Below are positions 1,098-62,415 of a stretch of DNA of 64,000 bases, piece by piece. This DNA comes from Candidatus Wolfebacteria bacterium GW2011_GWB1_47_1 (lineage in GTDB: Bacteria > Patescibacteriota > Minisyncoccia > UBA6257 > UBA9933): NCBI GenBank assembly GCA_001029635.1, contig CP011209.1, forward strand, positions 618,435-682,434. Reading direction: 5' to 3'. The number at the start of each line of letters is the position of its first letter. The stretch's first letter is position 1. The position numbers were made by a program, and so were the translations under genes. The notes beneath the pieces were generated by a model that saw only the letters and a list, made by a program, of their open reading frames with translations, was not told the origin of the DNA and ran no database searches.

Positions 1098-1247
1098 CTT
1101 GGGCGCTCTTCCTTGAGTGATGTGATATTAGGGATAAACCCCCAACGACTATGGATCGTTCCTCCCCTTATTTCTATCCTGGTGTCGCGCAATCCGAGCA
1201 TGACTCCTCCTCTGTGAGCGTGGTTTGGTGCTGTTATTATTTAAACA

Positions 1248-1557
1248 CAGCATTTTTTTGTTGTCAAACATAGTTTTAGGGTTGTGAACCTGGATCCCGT
1301 GTCGTGGCACGGGATGACATACGCATTGCCATTCCGACCCACGAGCCTGAATCCAGAGTCCTATAGGGTAACATCACGGGTGCAAAAACTCTGGATCCCG
1401 TGTCGGAGCACGGGATGATAACTATGTTCCGCTACTATGGTGTATGTTTTCGCTCGCATGTCTTTTTCCAAGAACCGGGAAGGGTGAATGTGGTGGCAAA
1501 TAGTATCGCCTGCTATGACGCTAATCTTTTGTCCGAAATATGCGTTGGTTGAGTAAA
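1248..1557 (+). repeat. copy 1 of a ~200-nt conserved noncoding element (second copy at 50814-51017), here with a 101-nt internal insertion flanked by a duplicated 28-nt hairpin module
   Basis: about 95 percent identity to 50814-51017 outside the insertion; perfect 8-bp stem atcccgtg/cacgggat at 1294-1315 and again at 1394-1416. Confidence 0.85.
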
Positions 1558-16312: not shown

Positions 16313-16342
16313 TTGACTTTTTGTTGGATAGGCTTATATACT
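16313..16342 (+). promoter_or_regulatory. sigma-70-like promoter of the mini-ORF pair (TTGACT-N18-TATACT)
   Basis: -35 at 16313-16318, -10 at 16337-16342. Confidence 0.5.
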
Positions 16343-16390
16343 GGGGGTAGATTCTTTATCATTCGTCATTCTTAGTGAGGAGGTTTGAAA

Positions 16391-16534
16391 ATGTTTTCGA
16401 TACCGGGTGGCTTGGCAGAGCGATTGGGATTCCCTTCGTTCAATATCAATCTTGACCTCGATGATATCGCTGACGTCAGCGAGGAAGCAGCTGCTCACGT
16501 GTCAGTGAATCCCCGATTCGCCAGAAGGAGGTAG
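16391..16534 (+). CDS. small acidic peptide, 47 aa (MFSIPGGLAERLGFPSFNINLDLDDIADVSEEAAAHVSVNPRFARRR); leader-peptide-like
   Basis: strong SD GAGGAGG 7 nt upstream of the ATG; ends at TAG 16532-16534; below the track size cutoff. Confidence 0.55.
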   Translation: MFSIPGGLAERLGFPSFNINLDLDDIADVSEEAAAHVSVNPRFARRR

Positions 16535-55731: not shown

Positions 55732-58700
55732 TTAATCCCCCTCTTGTGTCATTAAATCTCGCAGTGCGCAATACTCGCATTCTTGATCATCACATCGCTT
55801 ATCCCAAAACGCTCCTTCAATAATCTCGGACCCAACCCTTATAATTTCCTTTTCGAGTTTGACTATTTCTTCTGGCGTTACTTCAAACATTTCCTTCTTA
55901 TATTTTCCACTTTGCATCGGCTCTATAAAATCAACATCCGCCGATACCATATCATACTTTCCTTGCCTATCTAATAGGATCTTATAGAAGACTAGCTGAC
56001 GTTTTATTCCTCCTCCTTCGGTCTTTATTTCGTCATCACCTTCCATCTCATCATCCTTTGCAACGCCTTCTATTTGATTGCGGGATTTCGGCTTACCTGT
56101 CTTATAATCTACGACGTTTACTGCCTTCCCTGTATCGATAAATTCCATCTTGTCGATCTTTCCGGTCAGGCGGATCTCTGGGGTCATCATCACGTCGCTT
56201 ACCGCGTATTCGGTAAGAACGTTCCCTCTCCATATTTGGTGATACGTATCGTACCACCCTTCAAGCGCAGTTATTCCTTTTTTCTTTGCATCTTCAAAAT
56301 CCCTTCCTGTAAGCGATTGATGGCCGAGATGATATACGAATTTATCGATCAGAAACTGCTTGTCAGCACCCCGTTCGGCTAGCGCGTTGAAGAAGTCTTG
56401 CAGCGCGTTGTGCACTGCAGTCCCGAACATTTGGTGCTTTTCGGGGGCTCCGGGGATGCGCAATAGGTTTGAATAGAAATAGCGCCATGGACAGGTTAGA
56501 TAATTATTTAATGCAGTTGCCGAAAGGCCGTTGCGCATAAACAGCTCTTTGATATATTCCTTATCTCGGATATCCACAGACGTGATTGCGCGCTGAGTAA
56601 ATAATAATTCTTTGTGTCGGTTTAGCTCCTTTTCATATTGTTCTACTTGCATCGGCTCACATAGGTCTTCGCGTATCTCGCTAATAAATAACGAGGGTAA
56701 TAATTCCCGTTTGTGCGTATTTTCCTTTGCGTATGATACTGTTGCTGTCTGCTTTGCGCGTGTAAGCGCGACGTAAAATAGCCTTCGCTCATCGGCGTTT
56801 TCGTCATCACCTTCCATCATAAGATCTTCTGTCCGCGCAAATACGCTCATCGGCAGTACGAGCAACTCACGACTTCTCTTGTTGCCCCAATGCGTATCAA
56901 ATACATTGATAATATAGACATGATCGAACTCGAGACCCTTCGACCGATGCGCGGTCATTAGGCGCACCTTTCCTGTTCCATATCCACCAATGCTTCTTTT
57001 AATGGTTAGTCCATGTCGCTCCATCGTGTCCAGATGCGCGAAAAGGTCTGCGAGTTTTGCGTCTCGGTGCGTTTCTACTATTTTTTTAATCTCGTCAAAA
57101 AAGGCTGCCAGTTTTTCCATCTTCTCAACCGGTTCGGTACCCTTAAGTACGTGCGCCAACAGTCCTGATTCACGCATAATCATCTCTACGCTTTCGGCTA
57201 GACTCTTATTCTTCGCTGCCGCATTCCACTGCGCCATTTTCCCATATATTTTCTGCATACCTTCCGGATCCTGCAGATTCAGTTTTTCGTCGTGCATTAT
57301 TTGCTCTGATCGCACTACCTCGTAAATGGAGGTCCTGTTTCGATTTGCATATTCCATGCATTTATACAGGTCCAGTGGTTCAATGCCAAGAAAATCAATA
57401 TGCAACATTGCAATGAATTCCTCCGGAGATCCGAATGTATTGACCGCCCGTAATATGCGCACCATCTTTCCGATTTCATCATCACGCATGATGTCCTGAT
57501 CGGACTCTATGGCAGCGGGAATCCCCACACGCTCAAGCATCTCCATTATCGGGAATGCATCTCGATTATTTCTATACAAAATAGCGATCTCTTCTGGTTT
57601 AACTCCTTGAGCGATCCGTTCTTTTATATCGCGCGTGATACCGTATTGCTCGGCATCCTCATTTGCGAAGGAGCCAATCCTTATCGGTCGTGGGGTATGC
57701 GGGGCGTTTGCTCGCAATTCCTTTTTTCCAGGGATGACCCCATGCGCAGCATCGAGAATGATCTGCGTGGATCGATAGTTTTCTTCCAATACGATCAGTT
57801 GCGCTGATGGATATAACTTCTGAAAGTACAGGAAATTTTCGAGAGATGCGCCCTGAAACCGGTAGATTGCTTGCTTCTCATCACCTACTACAAAGATATT
57901 TGGGTCCTGATGAAATCCACACAGCAATTCAACAATCTTGTTTTGCGCATTGTTCGTATCTTGATGTTCATCCACTAGAATATATTGATACTGCTCCTGT
58001 AATAGAAGCAGCAGATTCGCATCCTTTTGCAGTGCCCCTAGCGCTTCCATAATCATATCGGCATAGTCATACCACTTTCCTTCGGCAAGCGCCTGCTCAT
58101 ACGCCTCATACAATAATACAAGCTCTTCGTTCTTTTTTATATTTTTTTGTTGCTTTTGGTACACCCCCTTCATCTTTCCCTTGTGGGCACCTTTGTCGTA
58201 ATACAGATCCTCGATGCTCTCGAATGCGCGCAACTCTTTCCCAACGATCTCCTTAAACCGGTCGACCGAAACACCTTCCTGCTTTAATTTGTCGATTGAT
58301 GACAAAATTTTCCCGACATAATATGTTGGGTCTCCATACGGTCTTAGGAGCTCTAATGGATGCTTTTCGAGCATCTGCTCGATAATCCGTACTCGGTCGA
58401 CTTCGGTTACCGGTTCGGCCCCGATGATCCTCGGAAAATTTTCCGGATAATTGCCAATAATATCATTACAAAATCCATGGAATGTACTGATCGCTACCGT
58501 GTATGCCGGGCCACCGATCAACTCCATAAGGCGGCGGCGCATCGATACCACTCCTGATTCCGTAAAAGTGAGCGCTAGAATATTATCTGGCTCCATATCT
58601 GTCTTTTGCAAAATGTTCGCAATGCGAAGCGTTAGTATCTGCGTTTTTCCAGTGCCTGGCCCTGCGATAACCATAACAGGGCCTTCTATCGTATCTACTG

Positions 58701-58758
58701 CGTGCTTTTGCTGTGCGTTAAGTTTTGCGTATGCGACTCGGAATGCATCGTTGATCAT
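55732..58758 (-). CDS. UvrD/PcrA-like SF1 helicase fused to a C-terminal PD-(D/E)XK (Cas4/RecB-like) nuclease with Cys cluster
   Basis: Walker A GPGTGKTQ; C-terminal ...VDYKTGKPK...CDDQECEYCALRD. Confidence 0.8.
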   Translation of the reverse strand: MINDAFRVAYAKLNAQQKHAVDTIEGPVMVIAGPGTGKTQILTLRIANILQKTDMEPDNILALTFTESGVVSMRRRLMELIGGPAYTVAISTFHGFCNDIIGNYPENFPRIIGAEPVTEVDRVRIIEQMLEKHPLELLRPYGDPTYYVGKILSSIDKLKQEGVSVDRFKEIVGKELRAFESIEDLYYDKGAHKGKMKGVYQKQQKNIKKNEELVLLYEAYEQALAEGKWYDYADMIMEALGALQKDANLLLLLQEQYQYILVDEHQDTNNAQNKIVELLCGFHQDPNIFVVGDEKQAIYRFQGASLENFLYFQKLYPSAQLIVLEENYRSTQIILDAAHGVIPGKKELRANAPHTPRPIRIGSFANEDAEQYGITRDIKERIAQGVKPEEIAILYRNNRDAFPIMEMLERVGIPAAIESDQDIMRDDEIGKMVRILRAVNTFGSPEEFIAMLHIDFLGIEPLDLYKCMEYANRNRTSIYEVVRSEQIMHDEKLNLQDPEGMQKIYGKMAQWNAAAKNKSLAESVEMIMRESGLLAHVLKGTEPVEKMEKLAAFFDEIKKIVETHRDAKLADLFAHLDTMERHGLTIKRSIGGYGTGKVRLMTAHRSKGLEFDHVYIINVFDTHWGNKRSRELLVLPMSVFARTEDLMMEGDDENADERRLFYVALTRAKQTATVSYAKENTHKRELLPSLFISEIREDLCEPMQVEQYEKELNRHKELLFTQRAITSVDIRDKEYIKELFMRNGLSATALNNYLTCPWRYFYSNLLRIPGAPEKHQMFGTAVHNALQDFFNALAERGADKQFLIDKFVYHLGHQSLTGRDFEDAKKKGITALEGWYDTYHQIWRGNVLTEYAVSDVMMTPEIRLTGKIDKMEFIDTGKAVNVVDYKTGKPKSRNQIEGVAKDDEMEGDDEIKTEGGGIKRQLVFYKILLDRQGKYDMVSADVDFIEPMQSGKYKKEMFEVTPEEIVKLEKEIIRVGSEIIEGAFWDKRCDDQECEYCALRDLMTQEGD

Positions 58759-58895: not shown

Positions 58896-60071
58896 TCACT
58901 CCACGACGAATGATCCGCGGACCATACCCATCCAACAGCTGAATGGAATTTTCCCATCTTCTTTTGGCGTAAAGTATAGAACGTTATCTCCCGGTTCTAT
59001 ATCTTTTGTAATATTGAGTGACGGGATAATAATTCGATTGGTACATCCGCTAACCTGTTCGGCGCTAATAATCCATTTGACCGGTATTCCTTTCTTTAAT
59101 TCCAACGATTCCGGCTCGAACCCTTTTGCGGTAATGCGCGTCCTAACCTCTTGTTCATCTCCTGCTGGGACCTGTTCCTCTGCCACATTACCGGTTAGCT
59201 CCCCAGTCCGTGCGGGCGTAACTGTTCCCCAAAGTGCATGCCCCGCACTGAATGTAGCAATCGCAAACAAGAGCACAATCACCCCGGATACCTTCTTAAA
59301 GATGGACATGTTGTTTGCCGATGACCAGCTGCTTGCGACTCCAAGCGCAAGTAGTGCCGGCATCGTACCAATGGCAAATAACGCCAAACTTGCGCCTCCG
59401 ATCCAAGCGCTTCCTGATGCCAATGCAAACAACTGCATACTTTGGGTAAAGCCACACGGTAGGAAGAAGCTCAGTCCGCCCAGTACAAACGGTGTCGTAG
59501 GGTGATCTGATGTGCTTAATTTGTGCCACAATTTTGACATTCCCTCCGGAGTGCGAATTCCAAGACGCGCGATCGATGGAACTAATCCTAAAATATTTAA
59601 TCCGAGCCACGCCATAATGACCGCAATCACAATATTAAACACAGCAATCGTTGCGACGCTGATATGGATTGTGCCGCCGATCGCCCCTAGCGTGCTTCCT
59701 AGTACAAAAAAGGATGTTATTCTCCCAACATGAAATGTGATATGTGGCTGAGTAGCCCGTATCAATGACCTGTTATTTTTTCCCGCATAGCGTTGCGCGA
59801 ATGCGACCACCACTCCACCGATCGTCGCCATACAAGATGATAGCGATGCAACGATGCCGATTAATACCGCAACGCCGAACGTAATCTCTGCGCTGCCTGG
59901 CCCCAGCGTATCGAATGCCCCTGTCGAACGGATCATATTATAGAATATAATCATGATGGTTACGATACCGATCGCAGAAATCCATTCGTATAGACTCGAT
60001 CCTTTATATTTTGAATGCGCAGAGACACAGCATTTATCTTGCTGCGCATGTTTTGTAATTATTTTTTGCAT
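58896..60071 (-). CDS. membrane protein: TauE/SafE/DsbD_2-like transmembrane domain fused to a C-terminal cupredoxin-like domain
   Basis: TM Cys motifs SSCMATIGG and FLPCGF; C-terminal beta-sandwich ...GCTNRIIIPS...FSCWMGM. Confidence 0.5.
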   Translation of the reverse strand: MQKIITKHAQQDKCCVSAHSKYKGSSLYEWISAIGIVTIMIIFYNMIRSTGAFDTLGPGSAEITFGVAVLIGIVASLSSCMATIGGVVVAFAQRYAGKNNRSLIRATQPHITFHVGRITSFFVLGSTLGAIGGTIHISVATIAVFNIVIAVIMAWLGLNILGLVPSIARLGIRTPEGMSKLWHKLSTSDHPTTPFVLGGLSFFLPCGFTQSMQLFALASGSAWIGGASLALFAIGTMPALLALGVASSWSSANNMSIFKKVSGVIVLLFAIATFSAGHALWGTVTPARTGELTGNVAEEQVPAGDEQEVRTRITAKGFEPESLELKKGIPVKWIISAEQVSGCTNRIIIPSLNITKDIEPGDNVLYFTPKEDGKIPFSCWMGMVRGSFVVE

Positions 60072-60077
60072 TGTTTT

Positions 60078-60533
60078 TTATAAGGCGGCTTCGTGTATCG
60101 TCTCATCAACCTTCATTTCAATTCGCCGCTCCCAATCCATGCGCCGTTCAAATCCGCTTTTTTCCAACCGTTCCGAAATACGCCAAATACCCTGATAGAG
60201 CTTTTGTATCTCGATCAAGAGTTCGGGCATCGTTTGTTTTGTGGAAACTAATATCGACTTCTTACCTTTGAAGATACGCCAGATGACAGGGTCGATCCCG
60301 TAGGCCTTACCGCCATATTCTACAATCAGTAGATCATGATGAACCTTGCGGTCGATAATACCTTTTACAATATAGATACGCGCGTTAGGAAGCTCATCGA
60401 GAATCCAATTTCCCGCCAGATGGACAACCTCATCGCAATAATTTTGAGCCAAAATGGGCAGCGGTTTATCACCCACCTTCTTGAGTAGATGTATCATCTT
60501 CTTCTGGACACCCTCAATTAGCTCTTTAGTCAT
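60078..60533 (-). CDS. hypothetical protein (151 aa)
   Basis: ORF only. Confidence 0.4.
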   Translation of the reverse strand: MTKELIEGVQKKMIHLLKKVGDKPLPILAQNYCDEVVHLAGNWILDELPNARIYIVKGIIDRKVHHDLLIVEYGGKAYGIDPVIWRIFKGKKSILVSTKQTMPELLIEIQKLYQGIWRISERLEKSGFERRMDWERRIEMKVDETIHEAAL

Positions 60534-60601: not shown

Positions 60602-61060
60602 TTATCGAGCAATATCGCCACAGGCATAATAGATTCCGGCTTCTTGAGGCGATTTATGTACATTAATTGCCAGTGGCAATCCTCCAAGCAACTTTGTCAT
60701 TGGTACATCGAGTATCGTCGTTGATTCACCATCAACCGGAAATGTAAGTGGGTAGACTACTTGACCGATTGATGCACACGTCCCTGTGTGGATATGTGCA
60801 GGCTGGACTACTCCCTCCGGCCCTCCTGTCAGTTTGAGGACCACCTGCGTCTTTCCATTTGTAGCAGTCAGTGTTGCGGTTCCCATTTGTCCTGATCCAT
60901 TTTGGGAATCAAGAACAACGACCATTGCCTGCGCCTGCGGAGCTGGTACGGAAATTTCAGGGGCAGTCGTTCCTCGGCGAAATGCTTGAGAAGCGCCATA
61001 TCCTCCTATAGCTATCGCAATCAGCACCAATGTACCAAACATGACCATTTTTTTGTCCAT
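60602..61060 (-). CDS. CHRD-domain protein with signal anchor
   Basis: AHIHTGTCASIG... Confidence 0.55.
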   Translation of the reverse strand: MDKKMVMFGTLVLIAIAIGGYGASQAFRRGTTAPEISVPAPQAQAMVVVLDSQNGSGQMGTATLTATNGKTQVVLKLTGGPEGVVQPAHIHTGTCASIGQVVYPLTFPVDGESTTILDVPMTKLLGGLPLAINVHKSPQEAGIYYACGDIAR

Positions 61061-61220
61061 TGTTTTCGTATATGTATGTAGTTTTTGTCTGTATGCCCTA
61101 TGCCACAGTCGACCTACTGGGTATGCTATGTATCATGCATTATTATATCACGTACTAGTATATAAGACGACTTTCGTTTGTATTGCATTTACTAGCGGTA
61201 TATAAGCGCATTGTGTAATT

Positions 61221-61242
61221 AAAAAGCCCGGATGATCCGGGC
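61221..61242 (-). terminator. orphan minus-strand intrinsic terminator gcccggat-c-atccgggc + T5
   Basis: no annotated minus-strand gene upstream of it; terminates the minigene transcript. Confidence 0.6.
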
Positions 61243-61282
61243 ATTAGGTTGCGGAGCGATAGATATGATTCATCCATCGCCC

Positions 61283-61348
61283 CTAGCGTATACAGCCTTC
61301 TTTGCAGTGGTTAACCGCTGCGAGGGCCCATTTTTTGCTTGTCCACAT
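61283..61348 (-). CDS. 21-codon mini-ORF (MWTSKKWALAAVNHCKEGCIR) with consensus SD, inside a roughly 160-nt promoter-to-terminator unit
   Basis: AAGGAGG 9 nt upstream of the ATG. Confidence 0.35.
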   Translation of the reverse strand: MWTSKKWALAAVNHCKEGCIR

Positions 61349-61386
61349 GGGGTGCTACCTCCTTTTTTCGATATGTACAGATTCGA

Positions 61387-61415
61387 ACTATATAACAACC
61401 CTTACACCTTGTCAA
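61387..61415 (-). promoter_or_regulatory. sigma-70-like promoter TTGACA-N17-TATAGT on the minus strand, overlapping face-to-face the putative obg -35
   Basis: -35 at 61415-61410, -10 at 61392-61387. Confidence 0.5.
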
Positions 61416-61446
61416 TATACTTGTTTTGTTCTACACTGTATCCATT

Positions 61447-62415
61447 ATGCTGATCGATGACGTAGTAATCAAAGTAAGTTCCGGACGCGGTGGGCGGGGC
61501 GCAGTTGCCTTCAATAAGAATATGAAGAGTCTTGGGCCTGCGGGCGGAAGCGGTGGTAATGGCGGAAACGTCATTGTTGAGGGTGCTTCGGATTTGGGTC
61601 TTTTAAGCCAATTCCGCTATAAAAAGGATGTTTCTGCGGAAAACGGCGAGCCGGGTAAGCCTCAGTTCAATGATGGCCACACTGGCGTTGATCTCATACT
61701 TAAGGTTCCCGTAGGGACCATTCTTCACAACATGACAACCGGTGCCGATTATGAAATCGTCAAGATTGGCGAGCGCATCACGATCGCCAAGGGAGGCAAG
61801 GGAGGCAAGGGAAATCTGCAATTCAAGTCATCCACCAATACCAGCCCGACTCAATATCAAAACGGAACGCCCGGAGAGGAATTCATGTTTCGGCTCGAAT
61901 TAAAGCTGATCGCGGACGTTGGCATTATTGGATTACCAAGTGCCGGGAAATCCAGTCTTTTAAACGAAATTACCAATGCACAGAGCAAGGTCGGTAACTA
62001 CCCATTCACAACCCTCGAACCGAACTTGGGAGTGTACTATGAGCTGATTTTGGCTGATATTCCAGGACTGATCGAGGGATCTAGTGAAGGAAAGGGATTA
62101 GGTGACCGATTCTTGCGCCACATTGAGCGAACCGAAATATTATTCCATTTAGTTCCCGCTGATTCCACAGACCTTGCCCATGATTATGCAATCATTCGTA
62201 AGGAGCTCGGAGCACACAATCCCGCTCTGCTCGCCAAAAAGGAATACCTCTTTTTAAGCAAGAGTGATACCGTCGCGGAGCCGGAGCTCAACGAGAAACT
62301 TGCGCTTCTCAAAAAACTCAATCCTACTGTTACTCCAATTTCGGTATACAACTGGGAGAGCCTTGACGGCGTAAAACGCATTCTCAATGAAGTAATTAAG
62401 CAGAAAAAGGTTTAG
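61447..62415 (+). CDS. obg: GTPase Obg/CgtA
   Basis: MLIDDVVIKVSSGRGGRGAVAF...; track ORF begins at an upstream TTG at 61426; the plus promoter TTGTCA-N17-TACACT ends a few nt before the ATG (possibly leaderless). Confidence 0.85.
   Translation: MLIDDVVIKVSSGRGGRGAVAFNKNMKSLGPAGGSGGNGGNVIVEGASDLGLLSQFRYKKDVSAENGEPGKPQFNDGHTGVDLILKVPVGTILHNMTTGADYEIVKIGERITIAKGGKGGKGNLQFKSSTNTSPTQYQNGTPGEEFMFRLELKLIADVGIIGLPSAGKSSLLNEITNAQSKVGNYPFTTLEPNLGVYYELILADIPGLIEGSSEGKGLGDRFLRHIERTEILFHLVPADSTDLAHDYAIIRKELGAHNPALLAKKEYLFLSKSDTVAEPELNEKLALLKKLNPTVTPISVYNWESLDGVKRILNEVIKQKKV

Follow-up and report, generated by a model that had tools for sequence, protein, structure and literature searches.

A predicted micro-protein gene divergent from obg in a clade of Candidatus Wolfebacteria

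We analyzed a 64,000-nucleotide stretch of the genome of Candidatus Wolfebacteria bacterium GW2011_GWB1_47_1 (contig CP011209.1, positions 618,435 to 682,434; hereafter the window) and characterized a short minus-strand region at 61415-61221, located between obg and a gene for a weakly CHRD-like protein. Judged from its sequence features and their conservation among relatives, this region is probably a complete and independent transcription unit for a translated micro-protein. It is best described as a conserved micro-protein gene that had escaped annotation, representing a new family of an otherwise familiar gene type, and it lies back to back with the promoter of an apparently leaderless obg through overlapping -35 elements. 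The initial annotation of the window had proposed a hidden minigene here, consisting of a TTGACA-N17-TATAGT promoter, a Shine-Dalgarno (SD) site, a 21-codon open reading frame (ORF) and an intrinsic terminator. All of these elements were recovered at the same positions using the sequence, the ORF list and scans.

Anatomy of the transcription unit

Promoter and terminator elements were identified by a consensus scan of the window, and the minus strand of 60900-61800 was additionally read directly. The minigene and the adjoining obg gene comprise the following features:

61410..61415, minus strand: minigene -35 hexamer TTGACA (consensus scan)
61387..61392, minus strand: minigene -10 hexamer TATAGT, 17-nt spacer (consensus scan)
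61357..61364, minus strand: minigene SD site AAGGAGGT, 9 nt between GGAGG and ATG (sequence reading)
61283..61348, minus strand: minigene ORF MWTSKKWALAAVNHCKEGCIR, 21 codons plus TAG, ATG at 61348
61253..61283, minus strand: 13-bp hairpin after the ORF, arms GGGGCGAUGGAUG / UAUCUAUCGCUCC, loop AAUCA (folding)
61221..61242, minus strand: intrinsic terminator, stem GCCCGGATCATCCGGGC at 61242-61226 and T5 at 61225-61221 (consensus scan)
61409..61437, plus strand: predicted obg promoter, TTGTCA (61409-61414)-17-TACACT (61432-61437) (consensus scan)
61447..62415, plus strand: obg, 322 aa, GTP1_OBG and MMR_HSR1 domains (domain and protein searches)

The minigene promoter matches the consensus at 11 of 12 positions, and matches of at least 11/12 occur at four sites in the 64-kb window when both strands are considered. 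The composite of promoter, SD site, short ORF and terminator is the sole instance in the window. Based on the position of the -10 hexamer, transcription is predicted to start at around 61380, resulting in a 5' untranslated region (UTR) of ca. 32 nt and a transcript of 163 nt which folds better than shuffled sequences (z = -3.2). The first base of the 13-bp hairpin is at the same time the last base of the minigene stop codon. An A/C-rich spacer separates this hairpin from the terminator, which has a GC-rich 7-bp stem and a 3-nt loop. Searching the whole window against Rfam at the gathering threshold gave no match, and a search of the 600-bp region at E values of up to 10 yielded only terminator-like noise, the best hit being Yfr1 (E = 0.1), which was essentially the terminator hairpin. 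No tRNA or transfer-messenger RNA was found in a scan of the window.

Conservation across related lineages and coding signature

Related loci were collected in two ways. Obg scans of genomes and metagenomes resulted in three distinct loci (L001, L002 and L003), and 15 Obg clusters with identities of at least 81% were obtained from a protein search. For ten of these clusters, looking up the exact protein sequences led to L159-L167, L170 and L171. The resulting comparison set comprises 14 distinct lineages including the window, all with Obg at least 81% identical. The closest Obg relatives of the window are Candidatus Wolfebacteria genomes with 88-90% identity, which places the window in the Patescibacteria or candidate phyla radiation. 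The whole unit, divergent from obg, is present in 14/14 lineages, and it is absent from relatives with Obg identities of 71% or less, where the obg neighbourhood is also different.

The individual elements are conserved as well. The minigene -35 hexamer TTGACA is identical in all 14 lineages, and its distance to the obg ATG is constant except in L167, where it is 1 nt greater. It is followed throughout by a 17-nt spacer and a -10 hexamer of TATAGT or TATATT. A GGAGG-type SD site precedes the start codon in all orthologues (GGGAGG in four) and is often extended to AGGAGGTGAT. A terminator consisting of a GC-rich stem and a T-run is found in all 13 lineages with sequence at that position. Downstream of the ORF, a hairpin of ca. 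11-14 bp is present in all lineages whose sequence extends far enough (L167 is truncated). It starts at the stop codon or a few nucleotides later, except in L001 and L162, where it begins within a C-terminal extension of the ORF. This hairpin covaries, with 10 of 13 pairs changing on both sides and none of 500 shuffles matching the observed score.

The 14 orthologous peptides are 18-27 residues long and contain two cysteines. Besides the window peptide given above, they include MWTSKKFALAGVNHCKEGC(M/T)R, MWTQRKWVLAAVNRCKEGCIR, MWTQHKWKLAAVNHCKEGC, MWTQRNWTLAAIAHCSCGDEGGC and MWTRKHHMRAVAHCSCKGEGGC as well as MWTKKHHMRAVAHCSCKDEGGCPR, MVGTNRRWRLATVSHCEDGC, MWTNRTYALRPVTRCKEGCRRSGNGCM, MWTGHYRLRPVTRCKEGCIR, MWTTNYRLRPVTRCKEGCRIKDDE, MWTAHYRIRPVTRCKEGCIR and MWTARFRIRPVSHCKEGC. 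They start with MWT, or MVGT in one lineage, and carry a C-terminal motif of the CxxxC type, usually CKEGC, with C-x-C-x5-C in three lineages. No variation was seen at Met1, at the Thr in position 3 or at the two cysteines, and little at Trp2, Val12 and the Gly preceding the last Cys. The peptide core ends at an invariant G-C, after which 0-8 unconserved residues follow. Hydrophilic and mostly basic in composition, the peptides represent neither membrane nor signal peptides. Interpreting MWTSKKWALAAVNHC as a lipoprotein signal peptide was considered and rejected, since the other subfamily (YRLRPVTRC) is not hydrophobic.

To quantify selection, Nei-Gojobori proportions of nonsynonymous (pN) and synonymous (pS) differences were calculated after aligning the 14 sequences by codon. 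The minigene frame showed a pS of 0.727 and a pN of 0.269 (ratio 0.37), compared with pN/pS ratios of 1.64 and 1.02 for the two shifted sense frames and 1.43 for the codon-aligned antisense frame over the same columns. The minimum numbers of changes at codon positions 1, 2 and 3 were 18, 20 and 40, respectively, so that the third position is about twice as variable as either of the first two. Codons of invariant residues vary only synonymously (Thr ACA/ACG/ACC, Cys TGC/TGT, Gly GGC/GGT/GGA/GGG), neither frameshifts nor internal stops occur in any of the 14 lineages, and the ORF can be aligned among lineages while the 5' UTR between the -10 hexamer and the SD site cannot. An ORF on the antisense strand, which is also open in all orthologues, was rejected as the coding frame based on its pN/pS ratio and on its first codon position being the most variable. 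On these comparative grounds, the minigene ORF is protein-coding and selection acts on its amino-acid sequence, because purifying selection is specific to its frame and the third codon position is the most variable. The hidden minigene of the initial annotation is thus strongly supported as a small protein-coding gene under purifying selection, and the check on its 21 codons in relatives came out positive: the peptide is kept wherever obg synteny is kept.

Within the sequences compared, the minigene was seen only in one Wolfebacteria clade. A hidden Markov model (HMM) of the peptide family, run against six-frame translations of 170 sequences (853 kb), retrieved only the orthologues from which it had been built. 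In the next-best match, in L121 (E = 0.14), the cysteines are missing. Comparing five MWT peptides, together with two peptides of an additional mini-ORF (ORF1) described below, with Pfam and NCBIfam gave no meaningful match. Gene callers left the minigene unannotated in all relatives that were fetched. In L162, the public annotation calls a spurious 53-aa ORF opposite the minigene (1244-1405, plus strand), indicating that annotation pipelines mis-handle this locus.

Function of the product and alternative readings

If the unit works as its layout suggests, a near-consensus sigma-70-type promoter would drive a transcript of ca. 160 nt carrying, in this order, a 5' UTR with an SD site, the 21-codon ORF, the hairpin and the terminator. 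The most likely mode of action of the product would be that of a free and abundant small protein. Stand-alone bacterial micro-proteins include MntS, MgtS and CydX of E. coli and SpoVM of B. subtilis. As for these, the minigene has its own promoter and terminator around an ORF of fewer than 50 codons with a strong SD site, is missed by gene callers and displays amino-acid conservation within its lineage. In contrast to MntS, MgtS, CydX and SpoVM, its peptide is hydrophilic, basic and not membrane-embedded, carries a CxxxC motif and shows no family similarity in Pfam or NCBIfam.

A possible lead for function is found downstream of the minigene on the same strand:

60078..60533, minus strand: clade-specific 151-aa protein, downstream neighbour with a predicted transglutaminase-like cysteine-peptidase fold

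The 151-aa protein family occurs only in the clade of the minigene and comprises 18 database clusters, of which 17 have identities of at least 75%. Its gene lies downstream of the minigene in 11 of 12 related loci with sequence there, the 1.5-kb flank of L160 ending before it, and is absent from relatives with Obg 71% identical. A sequence search of the 151-aa protein against the PDB gave nothing significant, and there was no match in Pfam or NCBIfam. Its AlphaFold model (predicted local distance difference test, pLDDT, 77) matches transglutaminase-like cysteine peptidases and amidases (protein-glutaminase 7.6, S. pyogenes TglA 7.4, LapG 6.9) as well as the protease CPR-C4 (6.2) from the candidate phyla radiation (CPR). 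Among the top-ranking structures are VASH1 and VASH2, two tubulin C-terminal carboxypeptidases which were solved with their small partner SVBP. In the model, Cys33 is placed at the N-terminus of a helix and His65/His66 at the start of a strand, with Asp67 and Asp81 nearby, and all of these residues are invariant. Vasohibin is a transglutaminase-like cysteine carboxypeptidase with an obligatory small partner, the 66-aa SVBP. The comparison is an analogy only, as SVBP is unrelated in sequence to the minigene peptide, and the minigene and the 151-aa gene appear to be separate transcription units. Co-occurrence of the minigene with the 151-aa gene, combined with the SVBP-type partnership, is a lead for function and not evidence. 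We tentatively suggest that the paired thiols might make the product a redox-active or metal-binding peptide, maybe a partner or substrate of the downstream peptidase-fold protein, an idea we would still consider more doubtful than probable.

Alternatively, the peptide might be a precursor or substrate processed in a manner similar to cofactors or to ribosomally synthesized and post-translationally modified peptides, for example if the neighbouring peptidase-fold protein removed the variable residues that follow the last Cys at the C-terminus. The invariant G-C with its variable tail would fit this scenario, as would a clade-specific neighbour which has a peptidase fold, co-occurs with the minigene and resembles VASH1 and VASH2 solved with SVBP. 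PqqA-type precursors are ca. 20-25 residues long, often start with MW(T/K) and are encoded by unannotated mini-genes. The minigene peptide is of similar length, has an MW(T) start and is likewise unannotated. However, the Glu and Tyr that are cross-linked in PqqA are absent in spite of the MWT start, pqqB-E are not found nearby and no Pfam or NCBIfam precursor family was matched. No radical-SAM protein, cyclodehydratase or other known maturase is encoded within ca. 5 kb, and the minigene and the peptidase-fold gene are predicted to be transcribed separately. We therefore consider a processed precursor unlikely.

A third possibility concerns the promoter itself. The obg promoter has the form TTGTCA-17-TA(T/C)A(G/A/C)T in 14/14 lineages and is followed by 9 nt to the ATG (10 nt in L167). 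An upstream TTG at 61426 was replaced by the ATG at 61447 as the obg start, as most close homologues have 322 aa with full query coverage. By this reading of the sequence, the obg mRNA is leaderless or nearly so, because a gap of 9 nt between the -10 hexamer and the ATG leaves no room for an SD site. The -35 hexamers of obg (61409-61414) and the minigene (61410-61415) overlap by 5 bp on opposite strands, in line with the overlap described in the initial annotation, and this geometry is kept in 14/14 lineages, with a 1-nt shift relative to the obg ATG in L167. The upstream region of each promoter consists of the spacer and -10 of the other, and the two -10 elements are 39 bp apart. An RNA polymerase bound in one orientation should consequently exclude binding in the other, making mutually exclusive divergent transcription, or polymerase competition at the overlapping -35s, plausible. 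With an 11/12 consensus match compared with 9/12 for obg, the minigene promoter would be expected to out-compete the weaker obg promoter.

Seven window genes of at least 100 aa, obg among them, have a sigma-70-like promoter with a -10 ending 6-9 nt before the ATG (starts at 61447, 62904 (-), 60533 (-), 4704, 51949 (-), 36223 (-) and 18557 (-)), an indication that this genome makes frequent use of leaderless mRNAs. Unlike these leaderless-type genes, the minigene has a very strong SD site.

Divergent promoters with shared core elements have been described before. In the bidirectional promoters reported by Warman et al. (10.1101/2020.01.31.928960; PMC12825309), the -10 elements overlap, with starts 7-25 bp and mostly 18 bp apart, and mutual exclusion of RNA polymerase is documented for symmetric promoters sharing a -10 (PMC12825309). 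Our locus is similar in that a divergent pair has overlapping near-palindromic core elements, where one binding event should exclude the other. It differs in that the -35s overlap (TTGACA/TTGTCA), with -10s 39 bp apart and predicted starts ca. 65 bp apart. The unit could act mainly at the DNA level, as a strong decoy promoter throttling or conditioning obg, with the peptide being of little weight. The 5-bp overlap with the same geometry in 13 of 14 lineages, the difference in promoter strength and the documented exclusion would all be compatible with such a role. A decoy, however, needs no conserved SD site, no selected peptide and no conserved 3' hairpin, and we regard it as improbable as the main function. 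Since it is compatible with a micro-protein gene and does not exclude it, promoter competition with obg would rather represent a plausible second layer added to peptide production.

We further considered that the unit encodes a non-coding small RNA (sRNA) whose hairpins are functional and whose ORF is incidental. The folding of the transcript relative to shuffles, the covarying hairpin after the ORF and an sRNA-like layout from promoter to terminator over ca. 160 nt would be in agreement with this, and a dual-function RNA would be compatible too. Dual-function sRNAs such as SgrS/SgrT, RNAIII/hld and SR1/SR1P are known, and the minigene shares with them a short, highly structured transcript with a small ORF and a conserved hairpin outside it. 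In contrast to them, it has no evident base-pairing target at the obg 5' end and no Rfam family. Duplex energies between the transcript and the obg 5' end were within +/-1.4 standard deviations of shuffles in 13 lineages, with no conserved complementarity, and the predicted starts of the two genes, ca. 65 bp apart, point away from each other. As the transcripts would not overlap and pairing is no better than in shuffles, a cis-antisense role is rejected for the RNA and a trans-acting effect on obg is not evident, and the antisense sRNA suggested in the initial annotation was therefore discarded. Together with the frame-specific selection, the retention of start codon, SD site and reading frame in 14/14 lineages and a peptide that can be aligned where the 5' UTR cannot, these results make a purely non-coding RNA very unlikely.

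The remaining reading, an ORF serving as the leader peptide of a translation-coupled attenuator for the downstream genes (encoding the CHRD-like protein, secreted proteins or the 151-aa protein), resembles attenuators of the trpL, hisL and pheL type in that a short ORF, a hairpin and an intrinsic terminator precede genes on the same strand, and a ribosome terminating at the stop codon, which abuts the hairpin, would melt its 5' arm. It is the least probable of the readings considered and was rejected, because no alternative antiterminator pairing exists (with the 13 nt after the stop codon masked as a ribosome footprint, the terminator was still the minimum-energy structure in 13/13 lineages), there is no regulatory codon run, the downstream gene varies, and downstream genes have their own promoters after the terminator in the window, L001 and L003, in contrast to the trpL type. 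A leader peptide regulating obg, as also put forward initially, does not hold either, since the minigene is on the opposite strand and shows no attenuator architecture even towards its own downstream genes.

Several points weigh against the unit being a functional micro-protein gene. All 14 lineages come from one narrow clade and shared ancestry explains part of the conservation, although synonymous sites of the minigene are near saturation despite this narrowness. The His/Arg at position 14 is unconserved, and with only two cysteines a monomer cannot form a classical metal site. No family or structure match points to a function of the peptide, and its link to the peptidase-fold gene is one of synteny in a narrow clade, with separate transcription units and 0-2 unrelated genes in between. 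The case for the minigene is, throughout, one of sequence comparison.

CPR genomes are tiny, a large share of their genes lack a known function and annotation systematically misses genes of fewer than 30 codons. Here, a strongly signalled and selected candidate micro-protein gene is located beside obg, the gene of an essential ribosome-assembly GTPase. The promoter coupling, if real, would illustrate in compact form how a shared -35 can be used for regulation.

Neighbouring genes and an additional mini-ORF

Downstream of the minigene terminator, a further promoter element was identified:

61142..61150, minus strand: extended -10 TGaTATAAT before the CHRD-like gene (sequence reading)

This element marks the CHRD-like gene as a putative separate transcription unit. 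It is not conserved as such, and the gene is absent from several orthologous loci. The CHRD label given to its 152-aa product in the initial annotation stands only as a weak similarity, the Pfam match (E = 7e-4, 20.8 bits) falling below the cut-off of 24.1 bits. The interval from the minigene terminator to the 151-aa gene (60602-61220 in the window) is a site of variable insertions. No gene is inserted in L001, L003, L162, L164 and L171, where the terminator is directly followed by the 151-aa gene, and a weakly CHRD-like protein of 148-152 aa is encoded there in the window and L159; a similar 154-aa protein is found downstream in L160. Elsewhere among L159-L165 and L170 the interval is occupied by unrelated proteins of 136-185 aa, and those read from DNA have a hydrophobic signal-like N-terminus. 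In L001 and L003, a TATAAT lies 6 nt before the ATG of the adjacent 151-aa gene, an arrangement of the leaderless type. The same predicted arrangement (TATAAT, 6 nt, ATG) precedes the 151-aa gene of the window.

Two larger genes are located further downstream. Positions 58896-60071 (minus strand) encode a 391-aa fusion protein that combines a DsbD_2 transmembrane domain and a cupredoxin-like domain, and 55732-58758 (minus strand) a 1008-aa protein whose 996-aa homologue in L164 has UvrD-helicase and PD-(D/E)XK nuclease domains. The cupredoxin fusion and an HIHTGTC motif in the CHRD-like protein are hints of copper or redox handling in this neighbourhood.

Four sister lineages carry an extra SD-preceded mini-ORF, ORF1, between the promoter and the MWT ORF, on the minus strand of each locus:

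L002 2813-2883, minus strand: ORF1
L003 2813-2883, minus strand: ORF1
L164 ~1314-1384, minus strand: ORF1
L170 ~1290-1386, minus strand: ORF1

Its Cys/Gly-rich products are MTCNGNCGG, MPCNGNCGG, MTCSGDCGG or MKRRCPGCGCGCGEGGG, and the reading frame ends with GGT-TGA in 4/4 cases, the UGA being conserved in all of them. An invariant hairpin (GCAAGC-GGUC-GCUUGC) follows, with 18 nt from the UGA to the loop. Beyond the first TGA, three of the four loci keep the frame open up to a second TGA at a shared position, and the changes in this stretch are synonymous. The second TGA of L170 lies two codons after the first, which fits a short selenocysteine peptide or a plain stop alike. Bacterial selenocysteine insertion sequence (SECIS) elements have their apical loop 16-37 nt downstream of the UGA (PMC10778597), a range that includes the 18 nt observed for ORF1, and cases are known in which selenocysteine is the last residue or close to it and the SECIS lies beyond the stop (PMC4607533). 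Apart from this, TGA serves as an ordinary stop codon in these genomes, as five MWT ORFs end with it. Rfam searches of the sister loci gave no SECIS family match, ORF1 and its hairpin are absent from the window, no selenocysteine machinery was detected among 38 window proteins scanned against Pfam, and nothing relevant on selenocysteine or selenoproteins of Patescibacteria or Parcubacteria turned up in literature searches. ORF1 could thus encode a selenocysteine-containing mini-peptide with a SECIS-like element, or be a plain ORF of 9-17 aa followed by a protein-binding hairpin.

Combining these elements, one can picture a clade-specific thiol-peptide system composed of the CxxxC peptide and the putative peptidase, a co-transcribed selenocysteine mini-peptide in the four sister lineages and coupling to obg via the -35. 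Here, the highly expressed peptide would partner with, or be trimmed by, the 151-aa peptidase, comparable to vasohibin with SVBP. Such a complete system is speculative and has a low probability in our estimate. Should the cooperation of the peptide and the peptidase-fold protein or the selenocysteine of ORF1 turn out to be true, this would point to a redox or metal chemistry of CPR bacteria that is based on peptides and has so far been overlooked.

Elsewhere in the window, with no terminator detected, positions 16313-16534 (plus strand) contain a second candidate small gene consisting of a TTGACT-18-TATACT promoter (10/12), an SD site and the 47-codon ORF MFSIPGGLAERLGFPSFNINLDLDDIADVSEEAAAHVSVNPRFARRR.

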